Origin: an uncultured Clostridia bacterium
Lineage (GTDB): Bacteria; Bacillota; Clostridia; TANB77; CAG-508
Assembly: GCA_947628115.1 (NCBI GenBank)
Contig: CANQYS010000003.1
Coordinates: 168 to 64,167, forward strand
DNA: 64,000 bases
Direction of reading: 5' to 3'
Part shown: positions 12,614 to 49,057 of the stretch, piece by piece
Layout of the letters: each line of letters starts with the position of its first letter
How positions within the stretch are numbered: the first letter of the stretch is position 1
Made by a program: the position numbers and the translations under genes
Notes under the pieces: generated by a model
What the model was told of the DNA's origin: nothing
The model's database searches: none
What the model saw: only the letters and a program-made list of their open reading frames with translations

Positions 12614-13232
12614 AAAATCACCTCATATTTTTTATTGATTATTAATTAAGTTTAAATAATATTTTTTGGTCAAAATCATATTAAAAATTTGATAGCTAAA
12701 TTTTATTTTTTATATTTCATTATTTTACAAGTTTTTTGTTTTAATGTCAAAATCTGCTTTTCCATTTTCTTCAAATGCATTTTTATGTCTTTGAATTATA
12801 GTTTTCAAATTGACAATTTTTTCTTAGTATAATTTTCGATTTTTATTTCAAGTTGATTTTGAATAGTAATCCTTTTTTTCCCAATTATCGATTTTACATA
12901 ATTTATGCAGATCTACTTATTTACATAATTTTAGTGCTTGCGTCTGTCTTTATACTTTTGTTAACAATTTGTTTCTGTTTCTAAACTTTTGTTCGTATAT
13001 CTGTTCATTAATTTTAAATTTTAAATTCACAACTCTATTTAGTCAAGATTGAATTTTGAATTAAGTTTACATATTTTTTTGTTCCTATTGTTTGTATTTT
13101 ACGCCAATTTTGTCTTCTTCTATTTTCTCTCTATTTGATTGTTGTTTTCCCTTATTTCCCATATTTTTCAAAAGTTATCCACAGATAGTTTTTAGTCCTC
13201 TTTTTTGGCTATTTTTTACATTTTAGCAGTTT

Positions 13233-19482: not shown

Positions 19483-19615
19483 TATATTTTCTTCTCCTTT
19501 TTTAATTGTTTTATCTATCATTAATATCATCTATTTTTAGTACTTTATTCATACTCCCTTATTTTTTATTAAAATTCTAGTAATTTGTTTTACTGTTGAC
19601 AAAATATGTTTTTAA

Positions 19616-20740: not shown

Positions 20741-20799
20741 ACCTCATTTATTCTTATAATTAATAGATAGAGGTTTTTTAAAATAAAATATATAATTAT

Positions 20800-22407
20800 T
20801 TGGAGGTTTTTATGAACGTAGTAATGATAATGGCTGGAGGTGTAGGGAATAGATTTGGTAGCAATATACCAAAACAATATATAAGACTTAACGGAAAACC
20901 AATTATTGATTATGTAATAGAAAATGTACAAAAATCTAAATCTACAGATAAAATATTAATTGTAATTGACAAAAAATATATAAAATACTCTCATATTCTT
21001 TCAAATAATTCATTTGACTTTGCTGAAAATGGCAATGAAAGATATGAATCTATTAAAAATGGATTTAATTATATCAAAGCACATTATAATTGCAATAAAA
21101 TTCTTATAGCTGATGCCGTTGCTCCTTTTATATATCCAGAGTTAATAGACGATTATTTTTCTAAATTAGATGATTATGATGCTGTTATTACTTCCCAAAA
21201 AATAACTGGTGCATTAGGTAACTATTACTATGATCCATTGGATAGAGAGGATTTTTACATTACACAATCTCCAGAAGCATTTAAATTTGATTTAATATAT
21301 GAAAATTTTAATCCAAATTTTAAAAGCCAAGAATTAGCATGGCAGTTGCCAAAAGAAACTAAAAAATACTTGAATTTTAATTTTAAAAATAATTTAAAAA
21401 TTACATATAATTTTGAACTAGAATATGCTGAATATTTAATAAAGTATCTTCAATTAAAAAAATCAAATGGCTTCTTGAATGTTCATGATAAAAACTTTTT
21501 TGTTACAGAAGGTATTAGTAATTATTTATTACGAATATATCCAGAAGAAACAGACAAATGGTTAAATAAATTATATTTATACTATAAAGAACTTACTAAT
21601 AAATATGGAGATTTTAAGCAAGTTATTGCAAATCAGTCTTCTCGCTATGGCTCTGTACTATTAATACAGGATAATAATGAAAATGAATTTATAATAAAAG
21701 TAATACCAGAATTTTTGCATAGATATGAAAGTGAACGTGATTCTTATAAGGTTTTATCAAATAAATTTCTATGTAAATTGCTAGATTATGATAATAGTAA
21801 TAATTCTATTATTTTAAAAAAATTAAGAAATGCAACACCTGCATTTTTTGAAGATAATATAAATTTAACTAACTTTTTCTCAAGAGTATTTACCAATACA
21901 ACACTTTATACAAATGCTCTAAAAGATAAAGCCTTCATAAATTTTTATAATAATCTGAAAGAAAAATTAACTAATAAAGATAAAATAAAATATTTATCAT
22001 CTGAAATAACATATTGTTTAGGAAAAGCTGTAGACTTTTTTAATAATTATTTTAGTAATTCTAAGCTATATATAATACATGGAGACCTAAGAAAAGATAA
22101 TATTTTAAAAGATGATAATGATTATTATGCAATTGATCCAATCGGTTACATTGCACCAATTGAATTTGAAACTTCTAGGTTTATTATTGATGATATAACT
22201 TCTAATAATTTATTTAATATGAATGATAGATTAGATTTACTATTAAATTATTTTTCAAAATGGTTTAACAAAAAAAATATACTAATTGCTACATACATAT
22301 TTACTGCATTTATAACATATAATAGTACATTTGAAAATGTTGATATGTCTCAAACAAAGGATTATATAAAACTAATGGATATAATAGAACGTGAAATAGA
22401 GGAATAG
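20800..22407 (+). CDS. Bifunctional protein. The N-terminus is an IspD/TarI-like cytidylyltransferase. The C-terminus is an APH/choline-kinase-like phosphotransferase domain.
   Basis: N-terminal MIMAGGVGNRFG...PKQYI...ENGNERYESIKNG is IspD/TarI-like. C-terminal IIHGDLRKDNIL...DPIGY matches the HGD-x-x-x-x-N kinase catalytic loop. Confidence 0.6.
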   Translation: MEVFMNVVMIMAGGVGNRFGSNIPKQYIRLNGKPIIDYVIENVQKSKSTDKILIVIDKKYIKYSHILSNNSFDFAENGNERYESIKNGFNYIKAHYNCNKILIADAVAPFIYPELIDDYFSKLDDYDAVITSQKITGALGNYYYDPLDREDFYITQSPEAFKFDLIYENFNPNFKSQELAWQLPKETKKYLNFNFKNNLKITYNFELEYAEYLIKYLQLKKSNGFLNVHDKNFFVTEGISNYLLRIYPEETDKWLNKLYLYYKELTNKYGDFKQVIANQSSRYGSVLLIQDNNENEFIIKVIPEFLHRYESERDSYKVLSNKFLCKLLDYDNSNNSIILKKLRNATPAFFEDNINLTNFFSRVFTNTTLYTNALKDKAFINFYNNLKEKLTNKDKIKYLSSEITYCLGKAVDFFNNYFSNSKLYIIHGDLRKDNILKDDNDYYAIDPIGYIAPIEFETSRFIIDDITSNNLFNMNDRLDLLLNYFSKWFNKKNILIATYIFTAFITYNSTFENVDMSQTKDYIKLMDIIEREIEE

Positions 22408-22410
22408 CAT

Positions 22411-23568
22411 ATGAAAGAAAAAATTAAAAAAATTATATATAATTTACCCATATATCTTAAAAATTACATAATATTAGAAAGCAATCCAGATTTATCAGAT
22501 AATACATATTCCCTATATAAAATGCTACTAGAAAACAACGTCAATAAAAAATATAAACTTTTCTGGTTCGTTTACGACAAAAATATGTATAAACATATTA
22601 AAATAAAAAATGTATATTTTATTAATGCATTTGGACAAATTAGTTTATTTGATAAAATAAAAAAAATATATATAAATTTTAAAGCAAAATATATAATAGA
22701 TTGTAATAAGTTTATATATAAAATGAATAAAAATCAAAAAAGATTGCATCTTGGACATGGCATGCCATATAAATTAGTTCCAGAGTATTGTAATTTAACA
22801 GGTGAAACAGATTATATATTAAGTCTTTCTAATTTTTTTAATGATAACATAGCAAAACTACATCTTGTAGATAAAAGTAAAATAGTTACACTTGGATTGC
22901 CCAGAAATGATGATTTATTTTCTAGAAATAAAAATATAAAAAATTTATTTAAAATTATTAATTATGAAAAAGTCGTAATTTGGCTTCCTACTTACAGGCA
23001 ACACAAAAACAAAAATGCAGAATTATCTATGAATAGTTTATTTACTTTAGGAATTCCAATTATATATAATCTTGAAAATCTAAAAAAGTTAAATAGTACA
23101 TTAAAAGAACTTAACATTTTATTAGTATTAAAACCACATCCAGCACAAGATTTATCTGCAATTAAAGCAGAAAATTTGTCTAATTTTATTATACTTTCTG
23201 ATTTAGATTTAAAACAAAATAATATAAATTTATATGAATTTTTAGGACAAACTGATGCATTAATTACAGATTACTCATCCGTATATTATGATTATTTATT
23301 ATTAGATAAACCAATTGCAATTACTGTAGATGACTTTGAAGATTATAAAAAAACTTTTAATTTTGTATATGATGATATATTTAAAGTAATAAAAGGTGAA
23401 TATATAAATAACTATGATAATTTAATAACATTTTTTAAAAATATATCTACTAATAATGATGTAGCACAAAAAGAAAGAGAAAAATCAAAGAAATTGTTAC
23501 ATAATTATTATGATGGAAATTCTAGTAAAAGAGTTTATGAATTTTTATTAAATAGTATGGGACTATGA
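22411..23568 (+). CDS. CDP-glycerol glycerophosphotransferase (TagB/TagF family).
   Basis: VIWLPTYRQ motif, C-terminal ITDYSSVYYDY region, size typical of TagB/F. Confidence 0.7.
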   Translation: MKEKIKKIIYNLPIYLKNYIILESNPDLSDNTYSLYKMLLENNVNKKYKLFWFVYDKNMYKHIKIKNVYFINAFGQISLFDKIKKIYINFKAKYIIDCNKFIYKMNKNQKRLHLGHGMPYKLVPEYCNLTGETDYILSLSNFFNDNIAKLHLVDKSKIVTLGLPRNDDLFSRNKNIKNLFKIINYEKVVIWLPTYRQHKNKNAELSMNSLFTLGIPIIYNLENLKKLNSTLKELNILLVLKPHPAQDLSAIKAENLSNFIILSDLDLKQNNINLYEFLGQTDALITDYSSVYYDYLLLDKPIAITVDDFEDYKKTFNFVYDDIFKVIKGEYINNYDNLITFFKNISTNNDVAQKEREKSKKLLHNYYDGNSSKRVYEFLLNSMGL

Positions 23569-23587
23569 TAATATAAGGAGTTTAAAC

Positions 23588-25105
23588 ATGAAAGACCAAA
23601 TAAAAATTGGAAGTATTTTATCATATATAGTAATTATTCTTAATATATTAGTTGGATTAATTTATACTCCTATAATGTTAAGGATAATGGGCCAATCTGA
23701 ATATGGAACATACTCACTAATTTCTTCGATTATAGGATATTTAACTGTTTTAGATTTGGGCTTTGGTAATGCTATTATTATATATACATCAAGATATAGA
23801 ACAAAAAACCAAAAAGATGAACAAGCAAAATTAAATGGAATGTTTCTAATAATATATTCTATAATTGGTATTATTTCTGGAATTTTGGGTGGAATCCTCT
23901 ATGCAAATATTGATACTATGTTTGCTTCTACAATGAATTCCTTAGAGTTACAGAAAGCAAAAATAATGACAATTATATTAATAATAAACTTAGTATTTAC
24001 ATTTCCATTAAGTATTTTTGGTTCTATAATAACAGCCTATGAAAAATTCATATTTTCAAAAATAATAAATATATTAAGAATTATACTTATGCCAATTATT
24101 ATGCTTCCATTGCTTTATATGGGCTATAGATCTGTAGCAATGACAGTAGTTACCACAATATTAAACATATCCTCTTTAGTTATTAACTTAATTTATTGCT
24201 TAAAAGTTATAAAAATAAATTTTATCTTTGGGAAATTTGATACAAAATTACTTAAAGAAATATTTGGATATTCATTTTTTATTTTCTTAGCTATAATCGT
24301 GGATAAAATAAATTTAAATATAGATCAATTTATTTTAGGTTCTGTTGTTGGAACAGTTGAAGTAGCTATTTATACAGTTGCAGCGCAAATACATACAATA
24401 TATGTTTCTTTATCCACCGCAATAAATGGAGTTTTACTTCCAAAAATTACAATGCTTGTAGAAAATAAAGAACCTGATGAAAAAATTTCGGATATATTTA
24501 TCCAAACAGGAAGGCTTCAATATATAATAATGGCTTTAATAACAACTGGATTTATTATTTTTGGACAGGAATTTATTAAAATATGGGCAGGAGATGGTTA
24601 TAATAAATCTTACTGGACAGAATTAATATTAATGATTCCTGCTATTGTTCCGTTGATACAAAATGTTGGAATAAATATACTTCAAGCCAAAAATATGCAT
24701 AAATTTAGAACAGTTGTATATTTCTTTATAGCTATTGCAAACTTATTCATTAGTATACCACTTGCTAAAAAATTCGGATCAGTAGGCTCTGCAATTGGAA
24801 CAAGTATTGCTTGTTTAATTGGGCAATGGATTATAATGAATATTTATTATTATAAAAAGGCCAATATAAATATACCAAAATTTTGGAATAATATTTTTAA
24901 AATGTCAATTCCTATATTAGTTATATTTATACCTACCCTTATAATTAATAATATGATTATTTCATATAATATAATTATTGTAGGATTAAAAATTATATTA
25001 TATACTATAATATATTCAGTATTATTATGGCTATTTGCATTAAATGATTATGAAAAATCTTTAATAAAAAAGCCTATTAGTAAAATTTTTAAAGTTAATA
25101 TATAA
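23588..25105 (+). CDS. wzx: Polysaccharide flippase Wzx (MOP/PST superfamily).
   Basis: 505 aa with about 12-14 TM helices. The N-terminus is typical of oligosaccharide flippases. Confidence 0.7.
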   Translation: MKDQIKIGSILSYIVIILNILVGLIYTPIMLRIMGQSEYGTYSLISSIIGYLTVLDLGFGNAIIIYTSRYRTKNQKDEQAKLNGMFLIIYSIIGIISGILGGILYANIDTMFASTMNSLELQKAKIMTIILIINLVFTFPLSIFGSIITAYEKFIFSKIINILRIILMPIIMLPLLYMGYRSVAMTVVTTILNISSLVINLIYCLKVIKINFIFGKFDTKLLKEIFGYSFFIFLAIIVDKINLNIDQFILGSVVGTVEVAIYTVAAQIHTIYVSLSTAINGVLLPKITMLVENKEPDEKISDIFIQTGRLQYIIMALITTGFIIFGQEFIKIWAGDGYNKSYWTELILMIPAIVPLIQNVGINILQAKNMHKFRTVVYFFIAIANLFISIPLAKKFGSVGSAIGTSIACLIGQWIIMNIYYYKKANINIPKFWNNIFKMSIPILVIFIPTLIINNMIISYNIIIVGLKIILYTIIYSVLLWLFALNDYEKSLIKKPISKIFKVNI

Positions 25106-25116
25106 CGGAGGTAAAA

Positions 25117-26067
25117 ATGTGCAAACTAAGTATAATAGTTCCTATTTATAATACTGAAAAATATTTATCTAGATGTTTAGATTCTTTAATACACCAGACA
25201 TTAGATAATATTGAAATCATATTAATAAATGATGGCTCTACTGATAATTCTCAGGAAATTATTAATAAATATTTAAATACATATCCTTCAATTTTAAAAA
25301 GTTTTACACAAAATAATTCTGGTCAAGCATGTGCAAGAAATTTAGGAATTAAAAATTCTATGGGAGAATTCATTGCATTTGTTGATAGCGATGATTATGT
25401 TGAATTAGATGCATATAAAAAGTCCTATAAATACGCTACAGAAAATAACTTAGATATTGTTTGTTTTAATTTTTACGAAGAAAAAAATAATATTAAACAA
25501 AAAAGTTCTTATTATAAATTTGATAATTATAATAATGTTGTAAAATATATTTTAAATGAAACATCTCCTTGTAACAAAATAATAAGAAAAGATTTGTTTG
25601 AAAAAAATAATATTAAGTTTGTTGAAAATTACATATATGAAGATTTAGAATTGATTCCAAGATTAGCTTTATATACAAACAAAATAGGCTTTTTAAATGA
25701 TTACTTATATAATTATGTTATACATGAAAATTCTACTATGCATCAAAAAAAATATAATACGAAATTAGATAGTATTTATTTTGTAGCAGAATCTTTAAAA
25801 AATAATTTTAAAAACACAAAATATAATAAGGAACTAGAATTTTTATTTATTGAACATTTATTGCATGGTGCAGTTTTACGATATTTAGAATATGAAGAAG
25901 GAAACAGCGATATTGAAAAAATATCTAACATTATAAAATCAGATTTTCCAAATTGGAGAAAAAATATTTATTATAAAGAACAAAATATAAAATATAAAAT
26001 AATATGTGAATTAGCTTATTATAAAAAAATTAAAATACTAAAAAAAATATTAAAAAATAGAGGTTAA
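25117..26067 (+). CDS. Family 2 glycosyltransferase.
   Basis: SIIVPIYNTEKYLSRCLDSL...INDGSTDNS...DSDD GT-A motifs. Confidence 0.75.
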   Translation: MCKLSIIVPIYNTEKYLSRCLDSLIHQTLDNIEIILINDGSTDNSQEIINKYLNTYPSILKSFTQNNSGQACARNLGIKNSMGEFIAFVDSDDYVELDAYKKSYKYATENNLDIVCFNFYEEKNNIKQKSSYYKFDNYNNVVKYILNETSPCNKIIRKDLFEKNNIKFVENYIYEDLELIPRLALYTNKIGFLNDYLYNYVIHENSTMHQKKYNTKLDSIYFVAESLKNNFKNTKYNKELEFLFIEHLLHGAVLRYLEYEEGNSDIEKISNIIKSDFPNWRKNIYYKEQNIKYKIICELAYYKKIKILKKILKNRG

Positions 26068-26071
26068 CAAA

Positions 26072-27223
26072 TTGAAAAAAAATATTTTATTTGTAGTAGA
26101 TAATTTAAAATTAGGAGGAGTTACTAAAGTTTTAACAAATCTTCTTAAAAATTTAAATTATAATAAATACAATATTGATTTACTAGTATTACACTATTAT
26201 GAAGATATGCAAATTAAGCTTCCTGATGAAGTTAACATATTAAAAGGTAGCAAAATATTTTCTTTAATTGATGAAAATATTAGTACATTATTAAGAGAAA
26301 AAAATATAAAAAAATTATTTGGGAAATGCATATTGGTATTTCAAATTAAAACAGGTATAATAAAAAATAAAATAATTAAATATAGAAAAAAAAGTACTAC
26401 TAAGCAATATGATATAGAAGTTGCATTTGGTGATGGTTTTCCGTATCTTTATACTGCATATGGAAATTCCAAAAAAAAGGTATCTTGGATGCATTCAGAT
26501 GTAATTATAAAAGATTATTCTGCTAGATATTTTAAAAGAATTAAAAAAGCTTTATCTATGATGGATATTAATGTTGCAGTTTCAGATAAAGTAGCCAAAG
26601 CTTATCAAACCCGTTATGAAATAAAAAATATAGAAGTTATTAATAATATTATGGATACGGAAGAAATTATAGAAAAATCTAACTTAATTGAACCAGTTCC
26701 TTTTGATAATAACCAATTAAATTTTATTTCTGTTGGAAGATTAGATTATTCTAAAAATTATGAAATGCTTTTAAATGTTACCAAGCACTTAATTGATGAT
26801 GGGTATAATTTTAAAGTTTATATAGTTGGTGATGGATCTGAAAAGAAAAAATTAGAAAAAAACATTACTAAATTTAAAATGGAAAAAAACTTTATTTTAC
26901 TTGGTAGAAAGGATAATCCATACCCTTACATAAAAAACTCTGATATTTTTTTACTTTCTTCTAGATATGAAGGATTACCAACAGTTATATTAGAGGCTTT
27001 GATATTACATGTACCATGTATATCAACAGAAGTTGCAGGTATTTACCAAATACTTAACAAAAGCTATGGAATTATTACTAAAAATGATGAACAAGATTTT
27101 TACTTAAACTTAAAAAATGTACTTAATAACCCTGAAAAAATAAAAAAAATGAAAAATAATTTACTAAATTACAAATATGATAACAAAGAACTTATTAATA
27201 AAATAGAAGAAATATTAAAATAA
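26072..27223 (+). CDS. Family 4 (GT-B) glycosyltransferase.
   Basis: C-terminal EGLPTVILEALILHVPCISTEVAG is the GT4 donor-binding motif. Confidence 0.75.
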   Translation: MKKNILFVVDNLKLGGVTKVLTNLLKNLNYNKYNIDLLVLHYYEDMQIKLPDEVNILKGSKIFSLIDENISTLLREKNIKKLFGKCILVFQIKTGIIKNKIIKYRKKSTTKQYDIEVAFGDGFPYLYTAYGNSKKKVSWMHSDVIIKDYSARYFKRIKKALSMMDINVAVSDKVAKAYQTRYEIKNIEVINNIMDTEEIIEKSNLIEPVPFDNNQLNFISVGRLDYSKNYEMLLNVTKHLIDDGYNFKVYIVGDGSEKKKLEKNITKFKMEKNFILLGRKDNPYPYIKNSDIFLLSSRYEGLPTVILEALILHVPCISTEVAGIYQILNKSYGIITKNDEQDFYLNLKNVLNNPEKIKKMKNNLLNYKYDNKELINKIEEILK

Positions 27224-27244
27224 ATTACTTTATAGGAGATACTA

Positions 27245-29488
27245 ATGGAAACAAAAAAATTAGAAAAAATAAATAAAATAAATAAATATTTTTTAATTGT
27301 ATTTTTTATATTACAACCAATTTTAGAATTAATATTATCTATATTCAATGATGAATTTTTTGCAATAGCTGGTATATCAATAGCTACTTTAATAAGATAT
27401 GCCTTGATAGCAATTATTATTTTTCTTGCAATATTTGCTAATTTGCATAAAAAAAGTACAAAGATCTTTATCGGAACATTAACATTATATGCTATTTTTG
27501 TATGCTTACATTATTTCAATATTAAAGATTTTGATATAGTTATTCTTAATATAAGTATGAAAAAAAGTTTTATAACAAGCGCAATATATTTATCTAAATT
27601 TATTATTCCTATATGTATAATGTTTTTAGTTTATATATTAGATTTTAAATACAATGATTTAAAAATTACAGTTTTGTCTGTTGTTACTATTGTTTCACTT
27701 ATTATATTAATTACAAATTTATTTGGAATCGATAATATAGCATACTCATTCAATTCTATTGTTCATCCTTCTACTAATATAATAGGATGGTTTACAATTG
27801 ATTATAATGATATTAATTGGAGATATCTTACTTCTAGAGGATTATATCCATCTGGTAACGAAATAGCTTCACTTCTTACATTGTTATTTCCATTAACAAT
27901 ATGGATATCACTTAAAGAAAAAAATATTTCATATTTTACTATCGTTTTTATTCAAATGATTTCATTGCTAATGGTTGGAACTAAAGTTGCAGTATATGGA
28001 GAAATTATTTTATTTGTATCTGTAATTTGTATATGGATATTTGAAAAAATATTAAAAAAGGAAAAAATTACAAAAGACAAAATATTATGCATAATTTTAA
28101 TATTAATATTATTTGGAATATGTTTTGCTTACTCACCATTTTTTAATAGAATAATAGTTGGTGAAGCTGGCTCTGGTTCTTATACCGAAATAATCGATGA
28201 TGAATCTGATAAGGGAATAGAAGATCCTTCGCCAAACGACGATTCAAATATTATTTATATAAAAGAAAATTATTCAAAACAAAGCATTCCATCTCAGCTT
28301 GTAGAAAATGCATATAATTATATAGAACACACTGATTTTTGGGTTCATTTAATAAAAGACGTAGATTTTTCTCAAAGAAACAGTGCAAGAAAAATAAAAA
28401 CATTAATATTACAAGATATTAAAGAAAATAATTCTGGTGTATTAGATGATTTTGTTGGGATTGGAGAAATTCCTATTTATCCTGAAAAGGATTTTATAGC
28501 ACAATATTATTATATCGGTATTATTGGAATATTAATATTTATAATACCATTTATATTAGTTGCTTTAACTTCTGTAGGATATAATTTTATAAGAATATTA
28601 AAGAAAAAATTTGATGGTACTCAATTAGTACTACTTTTATCATTTTTCTTTATAGAATTTGTAGCTTATTTTTCAGGGCACACATTAGAACCAATCTATA
28701 TAAATTCATATATAGCTTTAATTTGTGGTATGCTGATTTCTTTATTAATTAAAAGAAACAATAATACTTTAGGTAAATTAGAAAAATATATAAAAAAAAT
28801 ATATTGTAATGAAAAAGAAAATTTTGTAACTATATTAAAAAATAATATAAAAAATAATAAAAAGACTTTCATAGTTACTGCTAATCCAGAAACTCTTATG
28901 ATAGCAAGTAAAAATAAAGGATTTGACAAATGTTTAATGGATGAAGATACAATAATTACCCCTGATGGTATTGGTATTGTAAAAGGAGCTAAATTATTAT
29001 CTTATAATATAAAAGAAACAATTACTGGTGTTGAATTATGTAATGATATTTTCAAAATTTTAAATGATTACAATAAATCCATATATTTATTTGGTTCAAG
29101 AAAAGAAATTGTTGAGAAACTAAAAAATAATTTAAAAATACAATATCCAAATATAAATATTATTGGAATAGAAAATGGATATGTAAAAGATAGGCAAAAA
29201 GTATTTGAAAACATAAAAAAATTAAAACCTGATGCTGTTTTAGTTGCTTTAGGAATACCTGAACAAGAATTATTAATATATAATAATTTAAAAGATTTCG
29301 ATAAGGGTATTTTTATGGGTGTAGGTGGAAGTTTTGATGTTTTAAGTGGCAGTAAAAAACGTGCCCCACAATTTTTTATAAATATGCATTTAGAATGGCT
29401 ATATAGAATTATTTGTGAACCCACCCGTTTAAAAAGATTTTTTAAAAGTAATGTAATATATATATTTAAAATAATACAAGAAAGATAA
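27245..29488 (+). CDS. Fusion protein. The N-terminus is a multi-TM Wzy/O-antigen-ligase-like polymerase domain. The C-terminus is a WecB/TagA/CpsF (GT26) N-acetylmannosaminyltransferase domain.
   Basis: About 450 aa with 10 or more TM helices and a large exoloop. The C-terminal 250 aa (VTANPE...GIPEQE...GVGGSFDVLSG...WLYR) is a clear TagA/WecG match. Confidence 0.6.
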   Translation: METKKLEKINKINKYFLIVFFILQPILELILSIFNDEFFAIAGISIATLIRYALIAIIIFLAIFANLHKKSTKIFIGTLTLYAIFVCLHYFNIKDFDIVILNISMKKSFITSAIYLSKFIIPICIMFLVYILDFKYNDLKITVLSVVTIVSLIILITNLFGIDNIAYSFNSIVHPSTNIIGWFTIDYNDINWRYLTSRGLYPSGNEIASLLTLLFPLTIWISLKEKNISYFTIVFIQMISLLMVGTKVAVYGEIILFVSVICIWIFEKILKKEKITKDKILCIILILILFGICFAYSPFFNRIIVGEAGSGSYTEIIDDESDKGIEDPSPNDDSNIIYIKENYSKQSIPSQLVENAYNYIEHTDFWVHLIKDVDFSQRNSARKIKTLILQDIKENNSGVLDDFVGIGEIPIYPEKDFIAQYYYIGIIGILIFIIPFILVALTSVGYNFIRILKKKFDGTQLVLLLSFFFIEFVAYFSGHTLEPIYINSYIALICGMLISLLIKRNNNTLGKLEKYIKKIYCNEKENFVTILKNNIKNNKKTFIVTANPETLMIASKNKGFDKCLMDEDTIITPDGIGIVKGAKLLSYNIKETITGVELCNDIFKILNDYNKSIYLFGSRKEIVEKLKNNLKIQYPNINIIGIENGYVKDRQKVFENIKKLKPDAVLVALGIPEQELLIYNNLKDFDKGIFMGVGGSFDVLSGSKKRAPQFFINMHLEWLYRIICEPTRLKRFFKSNVIYIFKIIQER

Positions 29489-29498
29489 GGAGTTAAAA

Positions 29499-30515
29499 AT
29501 GCCCAAAATAAGTATCATAATACCTGTCTATAACACAGAACTTTATTTAAAAAAATGTTTAGATAGTATTATTAGTCAAACATATCAAGATTATGAAGTA
29601 ATAATAGTAAATGACGGTAGTACTGATAATTCTCAAAATATTATTTCTGAATATGAAAAAAAATATAAAGACAAAATATTTGCATATTATAAAGAAAATG
29701 AAGGTGTTTCTATAGCTAGAAATTTTGGAATTGAGAAATCTAAAGGAGAATTCATTACATTTGTTGATAGTGATGATTATATAGATAAATATATGCTTGA
29801 AAAAATGATAAAAAAAGCAAATGAAGATAATTTTGATATGATTATATGCAATTTATTATATATTTATCCTAATAAAAAAGTAATTGGTAAAAGTAATATA
29901 AAAGGTGATTTATTAACAAAAGATCAAATTAAAAATAATATAATAAATATTCTTCCTGCAATGTGTGGAAAATTAATAAAAAGAAATTTATATACTAATT
30001 TTAAATTTAAACCTAATATTTGGTATGAAGATGTTGAAAGCTACTTTAGAATGTACCCTAAATTAAATAAAATCGGTTATATAAATCAAGATTTATATTT
30101 TTATCCTCAGAGAAATGATTCTATTACATATACATATAATGAAAAATTATATGATATTATTTATATGTGGGATGGAATAATTAAAGAATATAAAAAAAAT
30201 AATTATTTTGATGAATATAAAAGTGAGTTAGAAATTTCTGTTATACGATACAGTTTCGCAACATTTGTAAAAAGATTAGCAAAAACAAAAAACAAAAAAA
30301 TGTTTAAACTGGGTGTTGATAAAGCAATAGAAAATGTAAACAATTTGTTTCCAAATTATAAAAATAATATTTATTTAAAAACATTCTCAATAAAAAATAT
30401 ATACTTAAAATATTTTAATAAATCGTTTGCTTGTATATTATTTCATTTAATTAATGGTATATCTATTAAAAAAAATAATAAAATAATTATCTTAAGAGGT
30501 AAAAATAATGATTAA
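29499..30515 (+). CDS. Family 2 glycosyltransferase.
   Basis: ISIIIPVYNTELYLKKCLDSI...VNDGSTDNS...DSDD. Confidence 0.75.
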   Translation: MPKISIIIPVYNTELYLKKCLDSIISQTYQDYEVIIVNDGSTDNSQNIISEYEKKYKDKIFAYYKENEGVSIARNFGIEKSKGEFITFVDSDDYIDKYMLEKMIKKANEDNFDMIICNLLYIYPNKKVIGKSNIKGDLLTKDQIKNNIINILPAMCGKLIKRNLYTNFKFKPNIWYEDVESYFRMYPKLNKIGYINQDLYFYPQRNDSITYTYNEKLYDIIYMWDGIIKEYKKNNYFDEYKSELEISVIRYSFATFVKRLAKTKNKKMFKLGVDKAIENVNNLFPNYKNNIYLKTFSIKNIYLKYFNKSFACILFHLINGISIKKNNKIIILRGKNND

Positions 30516-31614
30516 AGTAATGACAATTTTTGGTACAAGACCAGAAGCCATAAAAATGGCTCCATTAGTAAAAGAATTAAAATCTAGAAAAGAAATTAAA
30601 TGTATTGTGTGTGTAACTGCTCAGCATAGACAAATGCTTGATCAAGTATTAGATGTTTTTAATATTGTACCTGATTATGATTTAAATATAATGAAACAAG
30701 GGCAAACACTAAGTGACATTACTAGTAAAGTTTTAAAGGGATTAGAAGAAATTATAAATAAAGAAAAGCCTAATATTGTTCTTGTTCATGGAGATACAAC
30801 AACAACATTTGCTGGAGCACTAGCTGCTTACTATTGTCAAACAGATATAGGACATGTTGAAGCAGGTCTACGTACCTGGAATAAATATTCTCCATATCCA
30901 GAAGAAATGAATAGACAAATGGTTGGCGTTTTAGCCGACATGCATTTTGCACCAACTGAAAAAAGTAAACAAAGTTTGCTAAATGAAGGTAAAAATCCTA
31001 AATCAATTTATGTTACAGGTAATACAGCAATAGATGCTCTTAGTACAACTGTTAATCCAAACTATAAACATGAATTATTTGATTGGATAGGAAATGATAA
31101 ATTAATACTTCTTACTGCTCATAGAAGAGAAAATTTAGGAGAACCAATGCGTGGAATGTTTAAAGCAATAAAAAGAATTGTGGATGAAACTCCTGATGCT
31201 AAAGTTATATATCCTGTACACTTAAATCCTAAAGTAAAAGAAATTGCTGATGAAATATTAGGAAATAATGAAAGAATTAAATTAATTTCTCCTTTAGAAG
31301 TAATTGATTTTCATAATTTTATAAACAAATCATATATAATTTTAACTGATAGTGGTGGTATACAAGAAGAGGCTCCTTCTCTTGGAAAGCCAGTTTTAGT
31401 GCTTAGAGATACAACAGAAAGACCTGAAGGAATAGAATCAGGAACTCTTAAACTTGCAGGAACTAATGAAGAAACTATTTATAAATTAACTAAGCAATTA
31501 TTAACTGATAAAAGTGAATACGAAAAAATGAGCAAAGCTTCAAATCCCTATGGTGATGGAAAAGCAAGTATTAGAATTGTTGATTCAATAATCAATAAAT
31601 ATAGTAAAAGGTGA
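30508..31614 (+). CDS. mnaA: UDP-N-acetylglucosamine 2-epimerase (non-hydrolysing).
   Basis: MTIFGTRPEAIKMAPLV...HVEAGLRT...DSGGIQEEAPSLGKPVLVLRDTTERPE. Confidence 0.9.
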   Translation: MIKVMTIFGTRPEAIKMAPLVKELKSRKEIKCIVCVTAQHRQMLDQVLDVFNIVPDYDLNIMKQGQTLSDITSKVLKGLEEIINKEKPNIVLVHGDTTTTFAGALAAYYCQTDIGHVEAGLRTWNKYSPYPEEMNRQMVGVLADMHFAPTEKSKQSLLNEGKNPKSIYVTGNTAIDALSTTVNPNYKHELFDWIGNDKLILLTAHRRENLGEPMRGMFKAIKRIVDETPDAKVIYPVHLNPKVKEIADEILGNNERIKLISPLEVIDFHNFINKSYIILTDSGGIQEEAPSLGKPVLVLRDTTERPEGIESGTLKLAGTNEETIYKLTKQLLTDKSEYEKMSKASNPYGDGKASIRIVDSIINKYSKR

Positions 31615-31620
31615 TTAAAT

Positions 31621-32556
31621 ATGAAAAAAATATCAATAGTTGTACCAATGTATTATGAAGAAGAAGTGGCTAAAGAATGTTACTCTAGACTTACCTCAGT
31701 ATGCAATTCCATAAAAAATTATACATATGAAATAATTTTTGTAAATGACGGAAGTAAAGATAAAACACAAGAAATACTAGAAAACATAGCTCAGAATGAT
31801 AAAAACGTAAAAGTAATTTCTTTTTCGCGTAATTTTGGACATCAATGTGCTGTTACAGCAGGACTTAAATATGTAACTGGTGACGCAATTGTTATAATTG
31901 ATGCTGACCTTCAAGATTCACCAGAATTAATTCCGGAAATGCTACATCTTTGGGAGCAAGGAAATGAAGTAATATATGGCAAGCGAAAAAAACGTGATGG
32001 AGAATCTAAATTTAAATTACTTACTGCCAGTATGTTTTATAAAACACTAAATGCACTTTCTGATGTTGATATTCCAAAAGATACAGGTGATTTTAGATTA
32101 GTAGATAGAAAAGTTATTGATGTTATAAATTCCCTTCCAGAACACAATAAATTTTTAAGAGGATTATTTAGCTGGGTTGGATATAAACAATATGCCTTTG
32201 AATATGAACGAAAAGAACGTTTTGCAGGGAAAACAAAATATCCTTTAAAAAAAATGCTAAAGCTTGCTGCTGATGGTATTATAGGATTTTCAACAAAACC
32301 TTTAAAACTTTTAGGTGGACTTGGAATATTATCAATTTTTATATCATTTATTATTCTTATTTATGCTTTATTATCATTCATATTTAGCCTAAACAATATA
32401 ACTGCAGGCTGGACATCTATTATGGTTGCAATAACCTTTTTTGCGGGGGTTCAACTATTATCTCTTTGGATGATGTCAGAATATATAGGTAGAATTTATG
32501 ATGAAACAAAGCAGAGACCACAATATATAATTAATAAAACAATAAATATAGATTAA
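31621..32556 (+). CDS. GtrB/ArnC-like polyprenyl-phosphate glycosyltransferase (GT2 domain plus C-terminal TM helices).
   Basis: ISIVVPMYYEEE...VNDGSKD...IDADLQDSPE, with two C-terminal TM helices. Confidence 0.7.
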   Translation: MKKISIVVPMYYEEEVAKECYSRLTSVCNSIKNYTYEIIFVNDGSKDKTQEILENIAQNDKNVKVISFSRNFGHQCAVTAGLKYVTGDAIVIIDADLQDSPELIPEMLHLWEQGNEVIYGKRKKRDGESKFKLLTASMFYKTLNALSDVDIPKDTGDFRLVDRKVIDVINSLPEHNKFLRGLFSWVGYKQYAFEYERKERFAGKTKYPLKKMLKLAADGIIGFSTKPLKLLGGLGILSIFISFIILIYALLSFIFSLNNITAGWTSIMVAITFFAGVQLLSLWMMSEYIGRIYDETKQRPQYIINKTINID

Positions 32557-32565
32557 GGAGTAAAA

Positions 32566-32997
32566 ATGATAAAAAAAATATTAGAATTATATAAAAAAAA
32601 TAAAGAAATAATTAATTATTTAATATTTGGAGTATTAACAACAATTGTTGCTTTAGGAACATATGTTATATGTGCATCCACATTCTTAGATGTAAGCAAT
32701 CCTTTTGAACTTCAAATTGCAAATATTATATCATGGATATTAGCACTTGTTTTTGCATATTTAACTAATAGAAAATATGTATTTGAAAGTAATAATCCAA
32801 ATAAAATTAAGGAATTTATTAAATTTACTTCTTCTAGGTTAACTACATTAATTTTAGATATGCTAATAATGTTTTTAGGAGTAACCTTATTAAAATATAA
32901 TGATAAAATAGTAAAAATTATTTCTCAAATATTTGTAATTTTAGGAAATTATATTTTTAGTAAATTATTTGTATTTAAAAAGACGGATAAAATTTAA
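32566..32997 (+). CDS. GtrA-family small membrane protein (flippase accessory).
   Basis: 143 aa, four TM helices, YLIFGVLTTIVALGTYV N-terminus. Directly downstream of the gtrB-like gene. Confidence 0.6.
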   Translation: MIKKILELYKKNKEIINYLIFGVLTTIVALGTYVICASTFLDVSNPFELQIANIISWILALVFAYLTNRKYVFESNNPNKIKEFIKFTSSRLTTLILDMLIMFLGVTLLKYNDKIVKIISQIFVILGNYIFSKLFVFKKTDKI

Positions 32998-33023
32998 AAT
33001 TTATCCGTCCTTTTTTGTTGGTC

Positions 33024-41253: not shown

Positions 41254-41288
41254 TGGTGCACTTAGCTGGATTCGAACCAGCGGCCTCT
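41254..41288 (-). repeat. 35-bp fragment identical to the 3' end (T-arm, acceptor, and CCA) of tRNA-Arg(CCU). Putative att site marking the far end of an integrated island.
   Basis: tggtgcacttagctggattcgaaccagcggcctct is identical at 41254..41288 and 48981..49015, in the same orientation. Confidence 0.7.
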
Positions 41289-41590
41289 GCCTTATGAGAA
41301 ACTCGGTTACAATTTCAAATAGTGTTTGATTTTTTTAAAAGCCTTCATAAATCTAATAAATTGCTATGTTTTTTTAAATTATTTTTTTAATTCGATTTGT
41401 TTTTTTAAATAATTTTAAATACTATTTTATAGAATTCGCGACAATTTAGCGACACACTATTTAAAAATTCTATCCTAATCTTCTAGTCCTCCGTACACTA
41501 TAAAATTCATTCTTTTATATTTTACTTATAATATTCTAGCATAAATTTTATTATTATACAATATACTTACAAGATTATAATATACAAAAC

Positions 41591-41625
41591 TGGATAGAGG
41601 TAATAACCCCTATCCAGTCAAAGTC
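41591..41625 (-). terminator. Rho-independent terminator after the 491-aa MazF-like gene.
   Basis: ctggatagaggtaataacccctatccag hairpin plus T-run on the minus strand. Confidence 0.5.
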
Positions 41626-41643: not shown

Positions 41644-43119
41644 TTATGCAAATCTCTTGGCAAATACTTTTAATACAGCCATAAGAGAAATCTTCGGACA
41701 ACTCTCCACTAATTCAGGATGCAAATCCAACCATTTCTTAAAGTTTTCCTTCAAAATCGACTTAATGATCTCCTTTTTTACTTTAGGGTACATATTGTGC
41801 AATTCAAGGATAACATTTTCGTAGTTGATTCTCTTAATATCACAAGCAGCCACAAAGGACTGAGTAACAATTCTCTCTGATGTTGTCATACCAATATCAG
41901 TCAAAAAGTTATCAACCTGTTCTTTGACTTTTTTGGTAGGATCAAGTTTTTTCAGAGATTCTCCAATAATATCTAACAGGAAAGATTCCTCACTACCGAC
42001 CTTTTTTGCAGCTTTTTTAGGTTTAGGCTCAGTTGTAGTAACATCCGAGTTGTCAGCATTTACAGGCTTTGACTCTGTATCATCACCTTCAGTTGCATTC
42101 TCCTCACAAGTAGTTTTGACTGTTTCCTCATCCATAGCTACATTTGTTTCGGCTACTGCTGTTTCATCTTCGGTTTTGGCAACTTCAACAATTTCATTGT
42201 CAAAATCAGTTTTGATATCATCATCAGTCATTACAATATTACCTGTAAAATCAAATGTAGTACTTAACTTATCCAAAACCTTAGCAAAGAATTCAGGAGT
42301 AGCCTTGCCGATAACCTCTTGGAATCTTTCAGCTCTCAAGTATCTTCCCTTATCCAACAATGCTGTGCCACCAGTATAATAGTCGTTTTTATAAACGACA
42401 TCTTCAGGAACATCAAATGTAAGATAGGAAAGAGAAGTCAAGTTTTCCCTGATTTTGGTAATAGGCACTAAATATGCCATACCACCATTGGTAGTGCTAC
42501 ATACAATAGCAGAAACATGACCACCGTTGATTTCTCCTGCAAGGTGAATACCATAGTTACAATCTACAATATCTCCTACAGAGTATTCGATAGATCCCTT
42601 TTTGTTATATCTCATTGAGATTTCATTTATGGAAGTCAAGATAAACTCTCCGATTTCCTTTTCAGGGACATTCATCCTATACATTGCCCAGTAGGCAGTT
42701 CTCATAAATTTGTTGATTAAATTTTCAACATATTCATTTTCAAACTCTACCTTCTGGATAATCAAGTCATCTTCACTCTGTGGACCAACTACAGTAGGCT
42801 TGTTTTCAGGTTCGGCGGTTTCTTCGACAGTATCCTCAGACTTCGGCTCATCAACAATAGTAACACTATGAGAAGTTTCTACCGAAGTAGATTCATCAGA
42901 GGTATTGTCAATCATAACATTCAAAATGTTGTAATACTGGTCGATTAACTCTATAACAGAATCAATCATAGTATCATCAACATTTTCAACTGCGACAAAG
43001 CTGTTTTCTAAGTCAATCTGAATCCGACAGGAAATCTTGTTGACCCTTTTAATTAAGGAAACAACACTTCCTTCTTTTTTGGTAGTTACCTTAAATGTTA
43101 TTTTCTTCATTCTGTTCAT
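41644..43119 (-). CDS. Multi-domain protein. N-terminal domain shared with the upstream paralog, acidic linker, divergent MazF/PemK-like domain, acidic low-complexity region, and a C-terminal Spo0A_C-like helix-turn-helix domain.
   Basis: Residues ~180-290 (GDIVDCNYGIHLAGEINGGHVSAIVCSTTNGG...TALLDKGRYLRAERFQEVIG) align to the EndoA/MazF fold. The C-terminal ~70 aa resemble the Spo0A C-terminal domain. GC content is about 38%, against about 25% for the host. Confidence 0.5.
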   Translation of the reverse strand: MNRMKKITFKVTTKKEGSVVSLIKRVNKISCRIQIDLENSFVAVENVDDTMIDSVIELIDQYYNILNVMIDNTSDESTSVETSHSVTIVDEPKSEDTVEETAEPENKPTVVGPQSEDDLIIQKVEFENEYVENLINKFMRTAYWAMYRMNVPEKEIGEFILTSINEISMRYNKKGSIEYSVGDIVDCNYGIHLAGEINGGHVSAIVCSTTNGGMAYLVPITKIRENLTSLSYLTFDVPEDVVYKNDYYTGGTALLDKGRYLRAERFQEVIGKATPEFFAKVLDKLSTTFDFTGNIVMTDDDIKTDFDNEIVEVAKTEDETAVAETNVAMDEETVKTTCEENATEGDDTESKPVNADNSDVTTTEPKPKKAAKKVGSEESFLLDIIGESLKKLDPTKKVKEQVDNFLTDIGMTTSERIVTQSFVAACDIKRINYENVILELHNMYPKVKKEIIKSILKENFKKWLDLHPELVESCPKISLMAVLKVFAKRFA

Positions 43120-44275
43120 CCTCCTTTTTGATTAGGAAACTGTTTACTAAACGGATAAAATCGATAGTAGGAGATTTTCTGAACTTAAACTGTTCTTTTA
43201 TTCTCGCTACAATCAGCCTCTTAATCTCATCTTTCTCAACATTGTGCTCACTTTTAGCAACACTATCACATAATGTTTCTACATTGAAATAAGCATCTTT
43301 GGGCGAGATGAGTATTGCTTTGAAAAGGTATTGTACGCCGTTTCTTTGCATATCAAAGCCAAACAACTCAAGGATTTTTTCGGCTTTTATCTTATCAGAA
43401 TCTCTAGCTTGAGCAATTTTTAAAAGCTCGTTTACATCAATCAGAGATAACAACTGTACTTGTACCATATTCAAGTCTTTGCGTTCTTTAGGTGCATTAG
43501 TATCAAACTGGGGTACATCTCTATACACAGGCTTATCCACATACACCTTTTCAGTTTTGGTAATTACTTTTTCTTGCCTTTGCAAATTCAGCGAAATATC
43601 TATGATCTCCTGCATCTTATTCATGAATTCAGGTGTCATAGTTCCAATAAATTTGCGTAATCTTGTCTTGTCAACTGTTCGGATTTGTTCAGCCATAACA
43701 ACATTTTCTTCCATTCCAACACGAATTACATCATAGTCAATCATGTTTTCATTGGAAAAAACGAAGTGATAGTGAACAGGAACTCTTTTTTTTTGCTTGG
43801 TCGTACAAGATAGTACAATAGTAGTAGGCGAATGAGAATTTCCATCATCATTTTGCACAACTATTACATACCTCTTGTTTCCTTGCTCGCTGCCATAGGG
43901 TTCTCCGAAATCGCACAGATATACCTCACCTCGTTTTACAGTAGAATAGAGTAAATCATATTTCTCTGTGATTTGAGGTGCAAGTACAACATCCGAAGTT
44001 TTTTCTTCAACAACAGCTTTTCCTTTAGTGGAACTGGAAACAATTTCATCACTTTTAGGAAGATCAAATTCATTCAGAGTGAGTGGAAATACTTCACCAA
44101 AGAAGTTTTTAACATTTCTAATGGTTAGACCATTACAAAGTTCATCCAACAACTCATCAGAAATTTCACCATCTAAAGTGATTACCTGGTCAGAAATACT
44201 TGCCCTGATTTTATATTTGACAAGCAATTTACTAACCCGGCAGATGTCGAATGTTCTTGTTTGTAATTGTAACAC
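43091..44275 (-). CDS. Multi-domain protein containing a canonical EndoA/MazF (PemK) toxin domain between an N-terminal domain and a Spo0A_C-like C-terminal domain. Apparent GTG start with an AAGGAGGG ribosome-binding site.
   Basis: VKRGEVYLCDFGEPYGSEQGNKRYVIVVQNDDGNSHSPTTIVLSCTT...EQIRTVDKTRLRKFIGTMTPEFMNKMQEIIDISL aligns nearly motif for motif to B. subtilis EndoA. C-terminal GVQYLFKAIL...LCDSVAKSEHNVEKDEIKRLIVARI resembles the Spo0A_C domain. It overlaps the downstream gene by 29 nt. Confidence 0.6.
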   Translation of the reverse strand: MLQLQTRTFDICRVSKLLVKYKIRASISDQVITLDGEISDELLDELCNGLTIRNVKNFFGEVFPLTLNEFDLPKSDEIVSSSTKGKAVVEEKTSDVVLAPQITEKYDLLYSTVKRGEVYLCDFGEPYGSEQGNKRYVIVVQNDDGNSHSPTTIVLSCTTKQKKRVPVHYHFVFSNENMIDYDVIRVGMEENVVMAEQIRTVDKTRLRKFIGTMTPEFMNKMQEIIDISLNLQRQEKVITKTEKVYVDKPVYRDVPQFDTNAPKERKDLNMVQVQLLSLIDVNELLKIAQARDSDKIKAEKILELFGFDMQRNGVQYLFKAILISPKDAYFNVETLCDSVAKSEHNVEKDEIKRLIVARIKEQFKFRKSPTIDFIRLVNSFLIKKEDEQNEENNI

Positions 44276-44517
44276 TATGTAGCCCTCCTTATTAAATTTT
44301 TTTGGTTCTGGTTACAAAATACTTGTAATATCACACTCCTTTTTTATTGACATTTGCTAGACTCCAAAAAATATATTTTCTGGAATTTTCACAAAATTAT
44401 GTAAATATTATATCATTATTTTTTTGATTTTTCAATAGTATTACCACTAATTCAAATAAAATATAAAATGCAACTTAAAACAGCTAATACATCAACTGTT
44501 TTGAGTTGCATAAAATA

Positions 44518-45006
44518 TTACTTATTAAGATTTCTTTGACACTTTCTGTAAAGCTTGCGCCACGTCATTCTTTCGCCCATCCTAGAAAAAATGTTAGTAG
44601 TATGAAGCCAATAATATGTGGACGAATCACAGAAGCGATGTCCTATTGCTCTGATATGCCTTTTGATTGCGTGCATTATTTTTACTAACGCAACATCATC
44701 AGCAGTGCTAAGAATCTGCTCCAAAACCTTGTCTGAGACATAAGGCAAAATCCAGCTTACTTTGTACGCAAGATATTCTTCCTGCTTTATCTGCGCTGCC
44801 AAATTACTTACAATTTTGACCTGATCATCAGTTGAGAACACCTGGATATATCTATAGTGATATTTCACTAAATCTTTCATAAGTTTTTTGCGACAGCCTT
44901 CTTTAGTCTCGATGCAGTTTTGAATACTTGCTAATGTTTGGCGATTACCTGTCTCCAGATACGCATCAATTGAGTTTGTAAGTTCCCGATATTCGTTATA
45001 ATCCAT
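44518..45006 (-). CDS. Hypothetical Arg-rich protein (162 aa) in the GC-richer part of the island.
   Basis: ORF with locally elevated GC content. No recognisable family. Confidence 0.4.
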   Translation of the reverse strand: MDYNEYRELTNSIDAYLETGNRQTLASIQNCIETKEGCRKKLMKDLVKYHYRYIQVFSTDDQVKIVSNLAAQIKQEEYLAYKVSWILPYVSDKVLEQILSTADDVALVKIMHAIKRHIRAIGHRFCDSSTYYWLHTTNIFSRMGERMTWRKLYRKCQRNLNK

Positions 45007-45145: not shown

Positions 45146-45910
45146 TTGGAGGCGAAAGGAATGATAAAATTAATGGATAAAGGAGCAATAATTAAATTAA
45201 AGGAACAAGGATATTCTAATAGACAAATACAGAAATTAACAAAAATAGATAGAAAAACAGTTAGTAAATATTGGAATGAATATTTAGAAAATCTTAAAAA
45301 ATTAAGTAATGAAAAAGATTCTTTGAAAATAATAGAAATACAAGAAGCAATAACTTCAGAACCTAGATATAATGTTCAAAGTAGAATGAGAAGAAAATTA
45401 ACAGATGACTTTTTTGTTCATCTAAAAGACATTTTAAATTCAGAAGAAGCTGCTATTGAGTATATGGAAAGTATTTTAATAAAACTAAATGAAAATAGTA
45501 AAATTGAAGAAGAAAAATTACATTTAAAGACTACTAAACCGCCACTAGAATTAGCTAATATAAAAGAAAGTATTGTTAATAAATACAGTTTCATACAAGT
45601 TGAAAATAATTTTTACTCTGTTCCTGAATACTTAGTTGGTTTTAAAGTTACAAGCAAAATTTACTACAATAAAATTCTCATTTATTCAAATAATGAATTT
45701 GTTTGTGAGCATAAAAAATTAGATGGATGTAAGAAGATAAGTGCCGATATTAGACATTACTTAAAAACACTTACCTTCAAACCTGGTGCCTTGAAAAACT
45801 CCTATGTTTTAAAAAGTAATCCAAAACTCAAATCCATCTATGATAGATATTATACCAATAATCCTAAAAAATTCATAGATATAATATCAAAAAATAAAGA
45901 AAAAAAATGA
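45146..45910 (+). pseudogene. istA: IS21 transposase IstA remnant. The DDE catalytic core is deleted.
   Basis: See the IS21 element. 254 aa against about 400-500 aa for intact IstA. Confidence 0.55.
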
Positions 45911-48980: not shown

Positions 48981-49057
48981 TGGTGCACTTAGCTGGATTC
49001 GAACCAGCGGCCTCTCCCTTAGGAGGGGAGCGCTCTATCCTACTGAGCTATAAGTGC
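48981..49057 (-). tRNA. tRNA-Arg (anticodon CCU).
   Basis: The minus-strand sequence folds as a cloverleaf, GCACTTATAGCTCAGTAGGATAGAGCGCTCCCCTCCTAAGGGAGAGGCCGCTGGTTCGAATCCAGCTAAGTGCACCA. The anticodon loop is CUCCUAA, so the anticodon is CCU. The T-loop is TTCGAAT and the 3' end is CCA. Confidence 0.85.

Follow-up and report, generated by a model that had tools for sequence, protein, structure and literature searches.

An EndoA-like MazF protein and its putative degenerate paralogue, both with Spo0A_C-like ends, form a conserved gene pair in uncultured gut Clostridia

Toxins of the MazF family are normally small, single-domain proteins held by a labile MazE antitoxin, which in MazEF systems also carries out the repression of the operon. 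The closest described relative of the system presented here is EndoA/MazF of Bacillus subtilis (also NdoA or YdcE; structures 4mdx, 4me7 and 1ne8), a single domain of about 116 amino acids (aa) with the small gene for its antitoxin, EndoAI/MazE, lying upstream. We describe a pair of genes, A and B, found in a 64,000-nucleotide (nt) stretch of contig CANQYS010000003.1 (assembly GCA_947628115.1) from an uncultured Clostridia bacterium (TANB77; CAG-508). This stretch is called the window throughout, and coordinates refer to it unless another locus is named. Protein A shares with EndoA the fold, the catalytic Arg and Thr and the EQIRTxDK segment; it differs in that the MazF domain sits inside a 394-aa protein, that there is no MazE, and that the partner is an apparent paralogue encoded downstream.

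Two other described arrangements bear comparison. Myxococcus MazF works with the transcription factor MrpC in development, and this solitary MazF-mx/MrpC system of Myxococcus xanthus is likewise a MazE-less nuclease tied to a DNA-binding regulator and serving a host programme rather than addiction (PMC2701414). There the regulator is separate and encoded elsewhere, whereas in the A-B pair the nuclease and the putative DNA-binding domain are parts of one protein, and the paralogue is predicted to be co-transcribed. A 2009 census of type II toxin-antitoxin systems counted tandem MazF/CcdB-family gene neighbours in a table, likewise adjacent genes of the MazF superfamily, with no mention of sensor-like or helix-turn-helix domains or of a partner lacking the Arg (PMC2701414). 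Mobile elements of gut Firmicutes have been reported to be enriched in Spo0A_C-type domains (PMC6907783). Our literature searches returned no description of an architecture that joins sensor-like, MazF and Spo0A_C-like parts, and the arrangement appears undescribed.

What can be shown for the locus is its domain content, paralogy of the MazF and C-terminal modules, conserved pairing of A with B, a promoter and terminator of its own, a promoter-linked box and a covarying RNA hairpin. With slightly less than even confidence, we read the pair as a self-regulating, toxin-derived nuclease-regulator unit and not as a classical addiction module. The features on which this reading draws are collected in Table 1.

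Table 1. Features of the A-B operon and of the tRNA-Arg repeats around it, in window coordinates.
Feature	Position	Strand	Description
Gene A	43091..44275	(-)	394 aa; GTG start with AAGGAGG before it
A N-terminal domain	44102..44275	(-)	aa 1-58; predicted beta-alpha-beta-beta-alpha-beta
A MazF/EndoA endoribonuclease domain	43583..43939	(-)	aa 113-231, with R135 and T158
A C-terminal helical domain	43118..43474	(-)	aa 268-386; Spo0A_C-like helix-turn-helix fold (predicted), invariant E..RLIVAR.KE helix
Gene B	41644..43110	(-)	488 aa from ATG at 43110; 20-nt overlap with A
B N-terminal domain	42901..43110	(-)	aa 4-73; predicted beta-alpha-beta-beta-alpha-beta, pLDDT 67-85
B-specific conserved region with two-helix hairpin	42595..42783	(-)	aa 113-175; conserved in family alignment
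B MazF-like domain	42241..42582	(-)	aa 180-293; His201 at catalytic Arg position, EQIRT motif lost
B acidic disordered linker	42001..42240	(-)	aa 294-373; pLDDT below 35
B C-terminal helical domain	41647..42000	(-)	aa 374-491; pLDDT 80-91, homologous to A C-domain
Sigma-70-type promoter of A-B operon	44407..44435	(-)	TTGAAA, 17 nt, TATAAT; extended -10 TG
Family-specific box TTTACATAATTTTGTG	44390..44405	(-)	Partial palindrome directly past -10; candidate operator
Leader stem-loop near 5' end	44364..44383	(-)	8 bp, covarying
Second palindrome TTACA-N7-TGTAA	44312..44328	(-)	Within conserved leader block AACAAATGTC..AAGGAG.GTGATATTACAAG
Intrinsic-terminator-like hairpin	41588..41619	(-)	14 bp, T-rich tail; 25 nt past B stop codon
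45-nt tRNA-Arg(CCT) 3'-end copy	41254..41298	(-)	Between B and tadA; 43/45 nt identical to 48981-49025
Intact tRNA-Arg(CCT)	48981..49057	(-)	3' half is the other repeat copy

The pair was first recognised as two long minus-strand open reading frames (ORFs), with B taken at its longest (41644-43119, 491 aa) and therefore overlapping A by 29 nt. Of the two candidate ATG codons of B, the first directly abuts an AGGAGG and the second, at 43110, follows it by 9 nt. Given this spacing, together with the MKK... beginning of all B homologues and the 488-aa length of the NCBI copy of the protein, the true start is almost certainly the second, which shortens B to 488 residues and the overlap to 20 nt; residue numbers for the parts of B follow the 491-aa ORF starting at 43119. 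Judged by the strong promoter, the ribosome-binding sites, the 20-nt overlap and the terminator, A and B form an operon with both a promoter and a terminator of its own. The operon and its two intergenic gaps contain no MazE-, AbrB- or ribbon-helix-helix (RHH)-like ORF, inspection of the gaps yielded no credible small ORF at all, and the neighbouring ORFs have no such match in Pfam or NCBIfam. This bears out the earlier impression that a MazE-like gene is absent: the small antitoxin gene of the MazEF module is missing here, and B is the only conserved neighbour.

By every comparison that its sequence allows, A belongs to the MazF family. Residues 114-228 match Pfam PemK_toxin (PF02452) with an E-value (E) of 2.4e-23, at 82.9 bits where the cut-off is 23.1 and over profile positions 1-108 of 109; the B. 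subtilis EndoA/MazF structures 4mdx and 1ne8 are matched at E 4e-19, and PHROG 1936, 'MazF-like growth inhibitor', at E 2.8e-24. The Foldseek alignment gives about 42% identity to B. subtilis MazF and places the domain within the MazF/Kid/CcdB fold. The catalytic pair of the B. subtilis enzyme, which we take to be Arg25 and Thr48, aligns with R135 and T158 of A, both present, and the EQIRTxDK segment of EndoA is nearly unchanged. Across the A family the Arg is retained in 28/32 sequences and the Thr in 30/32, and the EQIxTxDK RNA-contact motif stays almost as in EndoA. A thus looks catalytically competent from its sequence, and the near-canonical EndoA/MazF domain reported in the preliminary description holds, as do the additional residues around it, which amount to about 113 at the N-terminus and 166 at the C-terminus (put at about 110 and 170 before). 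Avoidance of UACAU in the A and B mRNA was not significant (z about -1.7).

The flanking parts of A were characterised chiefly by structure prediction. The AlphaFold model (mean predicted local distance difference test score, pLDDT, 59.5) has three folded parts with disordered linkers between them: a beta-alpha-beta-beta-alpha-beta unit at residues 1-57 (pLDDT about 65), the MazF barrel at 117-228, and a seven-helix domain at 270-378 (pLDDT 79-91). The first of these, about 58 aa long, has no Response_reg match in Pfam, and its predicted topology is not that of a phospho-receiver. The last is predicted to share its helical, helix-turn-helix fold with the effector domain of Spo0A (PF08769; 1fc3, 1lq1), in proteins that, unlike Spo0A, lack a receiver domain. 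The A C-domains reach 12.8-14 bits against Pfam Spo0A_C, below its cut-off of 25, and Spo0A_C is the top or near-top Pfam match for 3/4 diverse A C-domains (E 0.05-0.12, likewise below the cut-off), always in the same register. An hhalign comparison with the Spo0A sequence of 1lq1 kept this register and was not significant (E 0.057), profiles of the A and B C-domains retrieved neither Spo0A nor anything else relevant from the PDB sequences, and the C-domain profile, in a word-indexed search, recovered fragments of the A/B family alone and no other architectures. We therefore describe the domain as Spo0A_C-like in its predicted fold and do not assign it to PF08769.

Protein B was thought to repeat this plan, with a shared N-terminal domain, a divergent MazF-like core, an acidic linker and a Spo0A_C-like end, and the parts of that proposal fared differently. 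No Pfam domain exceeds its cut-off in B; the whole protein matches PemK with 16.8 bits and its isolated domain with 20.7 bits (E 0.0005), both short of 23.1, while a few B family members carry a precomputed PF02452 match and the domain matches PHROG 1936 at E 6.4e-5. Profile-to-profile alignment by hhalign aligns the MazF-like core of B with the MazF domain of A (probability 91%, E 1e-6, 107 columns) and the 118-residue C-domain of B with that of A (probability 82%, E 1.1e-5, 86 columns). The B C-domain has no match to Pfam Spo0A_C, so its tie to Spo0A runs solely through its likeness to A. Between the N-domains hhalign finds no sequence signal (probability 1.5%), and what the two have in common is the beta-alpha-beta-beta-alpha-beta topology predicted, with moderate confidence, in both. 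In the model of B the MazF-like core has low confidence, the helical C-domain is confident, and the acidic linker of 80 residues between them is disordered. Its N-domain resembles PstA, Atx1 and ACT-type ferredoxin-like folds in Foldseek (E about 0.02-0.2); these weak matches, with no MazF or Spo0A, are what the 50 PDB matches listed for the model contain. The B-specific region (helices 129-148 and 153-171, pLDDT about 72-80) has no Pfam match.

With BLASTP the two proteins share a match of only 31 residues and whole-protein hhalign is weak; the relationship becomes visible domain by domain. A and B thus appear to have arisen by duplication of one three-module gene and to have diverged since, and B, on these alignments, is a degenerate paralogue of A. 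Both proteins are, in accordance with the first view of them, multi-domain and built around a MazF-type domain. At the catalytic Arg position the B family has His in 27/34 members and Arg in only one. Despite the loss of the Arg and of EQIRT, the B core has many invariant residues and is therefore conserved rather than decaying. The acidic linker of B, as noted previously, is real (23 acidic and 9 basic residues, net charge -14), and across the family its net charge is zero or negative in all members but one. The linkers before each MazF-type domain and the long linker of B are acidic in nearly every member, the linker of A between the MazF and helix-turn-helix domains is basic, and this pattern of charge is conserved while the linker sequences diverge. 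The charge of the domains themselves does not separate the MazF core of A from that of B.

The family is small and narrowly distributed. In a set of 5.8 billion proteins A has 288 homologues and B 195; the 120 A homologues listed are 56-100% identical, most of them full length. When 1.84 billion representative proteins were searched exhaustively by HMMER with the profile of B, 305 relatives came out at E<=0.001, none of them outside the family, so that there is no merging with canonical MazF. None of the matches listed for either family carries a name. Pfam recognised only the PemK domain, in NCBIfam A had a MazF match far below the threshold while B had no meaningful match, and PADLOC produced only spurious matches to unrelated models (E 0.001-0.007). 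A collection of species-representative genomes contained 36 loci with an A-type protein; individual loci and contigs are cited below by L-number. All are in metagenome-assembled genomes of uncultured Clostridia, one labelled Bacilli, and most of the samples are from the gut (the record titles mention rabbit, goat, sheep and Hadza human samples). The A-B family is restricted to a single low-GC lineage of uncultured gut Clostridia.

B or a remnant of B stands immediately after A in 36/36 of these loci, and each genome assembly returned one locus. Conservation of the neighbourhood, which had been put forward for checking, therefore holds for the pairing and for nothing beyond it: in a clustering of the neighbouring ORFs no gene but B travels with A, and other neighbours are common only within subclades. 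Since related loci have these neighbouring genes in common, vertical descent within groups of related loci is suggested. The neighbours include the housekeeping genes tadA, dnaX and rpoB and some transposase-type genes, with no recognised defence genes, and collections of phages, plasmids and IMG/VR viral contigs held no relative of the pair.

The promoter (11/12 hexamer matches) is alignable across 22 loci and is followed by a leader of about 130 nt leading to the AAGGAGG of A, and promoter and leader are conserved among genomes whose A proteins are only 39-70% identical. The box directly past the -10 is a partial palindrome, TTACA-N6-TGTGA in the window copy and ending in TGTAA in the consensus, with the family consensus TTTACATAA(T/C)TTTGT(A/G). 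The 8-mer TTACATAA lies in the promoter window of 26/36 loci; its density is 5.5 per kb there and 0.025 per kb in the rest of the loci. In the two most distant clades (proteins 32-38% identical) the box is found in the -35/-10 spacer, and L021 has it in both positions. Since the box keeps to the promoter whether or not it lies in the transcribed region, its placement suits a DNA operator better than an RNA element. The full 16-mer occurs a single time in the window, where no further copies beyond chance were found that might indicate a wider regulon; exact TTTACATAA occurs twice, at 12893 and 12920, no more often than chance would give.

Further into the leader an RNA hairpin sits between two palindromes. 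In 18 homologous leaders (the window and 17 loci) 84.7% of the cells of the stem pair, compared with 68.1% after shuffling (0/500 shuffles reach the observed value), compensatory changes occur at 8/8 pairs, and slid controls remain at <=55%. Past the stem-loop lies a nearly invariant, apparently unstructured block, AACAAATGTCTATAAAAAGGAGnGTGATATTACAAG, with a second Shine-Dalgarno-like AAGGAG, and the second palindrome, which across the family is TTACA-N7-8-TGTAA, stands about 53 nt before the start codon. A search of the leader against Rfam gave no match. The idea of a leader peptide was rejected, as the short leader ORF, which overlaps the conserved block around the second palindrome, shifts frame and gains stop codons between genomes. 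In L011, L016 and L035 this short ORF (MST/IKKE.DIT...) is in frame with A, giving called A proteins of 409-424 aa; the resulting N-terminal extension is not conserved as protein.

Both proteins have the same three modules in common, namely an N-domain that is small and ferredoxin-like by prediction, a central domain of MazF type and a helix-turn-helix that is Spo0A_C-like in its predicted fold. If the pair is a self-regulating nuclease-regulator unit, A would be an active, sequence-specific, EndoA-like endoribonuclease tethered to a Spo0A-type helix-turn-helix, because the catalytic Arg and Thr and the EndoA EQIRT RNA-contact motif are kept. The Spo0A_C-like domain of A, and probably that of B, may bind the promoter-overlapping TTTACATAA box, so that the operon would repress itself; in comparison with MazEF autorepression, the conserved palindromic box would be the candidate operator. 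It differs from the 0A box of Spo0A, which we take to be TGTCGAA. B lacks the catalytic Arg but appears to be under strong purifying selection, and it probably forms mixed oligomers with A and modulates it, with contact expected through the paralogous MazF-like and C-terminal domains. By analogy with the acidic tail of MazE, the acidic linkers of A and B may fill the RNA groove, and the ACT/PII-like N-domains, as modelled, are the likely input, by ligand or by oligomerisation.

Several points weigh against this proposal. RNase activity, DNA binding and interaction between A and B are inferred. The link to Spo0A is through predicted fold only, with Pfam scores below the cut-off and neither the PDB-profile nor the hhalign search significant, and the overall confidence of the models is modest (mean pLDDT 59.5 for A and 61.8 for B). 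Enrichment of TTACATAA at family promoters exceeds 200-fold, a figure inflated by shared ancestry. The GC content of the pair is above that of its flanks in 33/36 loci, by 1-17 points, which could mean foreign origin. B is also far from uniform: the MazF-like core is missing in L017, L032 and L033, the C-domain in L016, L019, L020 and L035, and in L015 (9034-9228 of that locus) B is a 64-aa ORF in which the first roughly 10 residues are fused to the last roughly 25. Any role of B must then be dispensable in some lineages.

Variation in A bears on one alternative in particular, a transcription-factor pair whose MazF-type domains are no longer nucleases and serve only as dimerisation, RNA-binding or ligand-binding scaffolds between the sensor and the Spo0A-like domains. 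The constant parts of the system are the N- and C-domains of A, which are always present, and the N-domain of B wherever B persists. The MazF domain of A is deleted in L030 and L036, and in L031-L034 the Arg has become Glu and the EQ motif is lost, with the rest of A conserved in both groups, so the nuclease can evidently be lost and the gene kept. Such a history, a B core already without the Arg, the conserved promoter box and the precedent of MazF and the transcription factor MrpC in Myxococcus development (PMC2701414) all agree with a purely regulatory pair. We nevertheless consider it unlikely, since the degree to which A proteins retain the Arg, the Thr and an EQIxTxDK segment near that of EndoA, at 42% identity, is the pattern expected from selection for catalysis.

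The second alternative is a type II toxin-antitoxin or addiction module of the classical kind, residing on an island integrated at a tRNA, with A as toxin and B as a neutralising pseudo-toxin antitoxin; the preliminary description had leaned this way. It has the surroundings of the pair in this genome on its side. The 45-nt direct repeats bracket a 7.7-kb segment that holds the A-B pair, a 162-aa ORF, a truncated IS21/Mu-type transposase ORF, a methyltransferase and small unknown ORFs, and in its 42-45 kb part the GC content is 0.33-0.37 against about 0.25. ARAGORN called no tRNA at the repeat copy between B and tadA. As no integrase is detectable inside, the segment has the look of an integrative element in decay or of a scar left by rearrangement. 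The placing of the pair on a tRNA island is thus correct for the window; the loci of other genomes have no tRNA-fragment repeats around the pair. In the closest relatives tRNA-Arg(CCT) lies directly upstream of A (L006 and L014) or between B and tadA (L030), with no repeat, and a tRNA gene is within 0.6 kb of the pair in 9/29 loci scanned. The tRNA repeat is real but peculiar to this genome, and movement of the pair as an integrative element is not supported.

An addiction module would also be in keeping with the intact MazF domain of A, the overlap and universal pairing of the two genes, the acidic, MazE-like disordered segments of B, insertion sequence (IS) debris beside the pair, its raised GC content and the tandem MazF-MazF neighbours recorded in the census (PMC2701414). 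Against this, a MazEF module requires the partner wherever the toxin is intact, and in L015 the A protein looks intact (R, T and the EQIxT motif kept) beside the 64-aa remnant of B. This case comes from a single metagenome-assembled genome and is moderate evidence. L017 points the same way, A keeping its Arg and Thr although the B core is gone. Because of these losses, B is argued not to be an indispensable antitoxin, and the loss of MazF or of its Arg in other A proteins further weakens the addiction and abortive-infection readings. Mobility fares no better in view of the vertical-looking neighbourhoods, the single locus per assembly, the absence from phage, plasmid and viral collections and the integrase-free island, and the gene order, with the toxin first, is a further argument. 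Altogether we judge a classical addiction module improbable. A SigH-like sigma factor gene was seen just upstream of A in L015.

Finally, MazF-type toxins can act in phage defence, and an anti-phage abortive infection system in which the N-domain or the helix-turn-helix senses infection and frees the MazF nuclease would suit the sensor-plus-effector architecture and the match of A to PHROG 1936, but we hold it to be very unlikely given the lack of a meaningful PADLOC match, the neighbours without recognised defence genes, a distribution of one locus per assembly that looks vertical and not patchy, and conservation of promoter and leader far beyond the norm of defence islands.

Some further observations concern the remainder of the window. 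The 162-aa ORF at 44518-45006 (-), just upstream of the A promoter, has no Pfam, NCBIfam or PHROGs match and accompanies the pair only in contigs with an identical A protein (L045, L046), not in other species. The 254-aa ORF at 45146-45910 (+) combines a helix-turn-helix motif at its N-terminus with a Mu-transposase C-terminal domain but has no catalytic core, and looks like an internally deleted IS21/Mu-type transposase; from 45.9 to 46.8 kb there are only short broken ORFs. The region 11000-14000 is extremely AT-rich (GC 0.12-0.19) and overlaps two long ORFs on the minus strand, one of 628 aa (10727-12613) and one of 492 aa (13233-14711). In the region 19600-33000 a block of co-oriented plus-strand ORFs extends over about 13 kb (19616-32997), with a flip of GC skew and gene orientation to the plus strand; past the block both revert to the minus strand.

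A bolder extension of the nuclease-regulator reading, one we put forward as possible and on balance doubtful, is that A and B represent a new class of toxin-derived regulator, in which MazF, a Spo0A-type domain and an ACT/PII-like sensor are united in one polypeptide and accompanied by a catalytically altered paralogue. The complex would both repress its promoter and cleave RNA on a signal, with no separate antitoxin, and would have become a fixed chromosomal feature in one lineage of uncultured gut Clostridia. What sets the pair apart is that the DNA-binding function is apparently fused to the nuclease, that the partner is to all appearance a degenerate copy of the toxin, and that the unit resembles a conserved host gene pair and not a selfish module. 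The naturally occurring domain losses (A without its nuclease, B without its core or C-domain, and B deleted) provide a ready-made deletion set for dissecting function. If the nuclease-regulator reading is true, the pair would illustrate one route by which a toxin-antitoxin nuclease becomes a host regulator, would extend the Spo0A-type DNA-binding domains to a new target site, and would supply a MazF homologue whose cleavage specificity can be determined.

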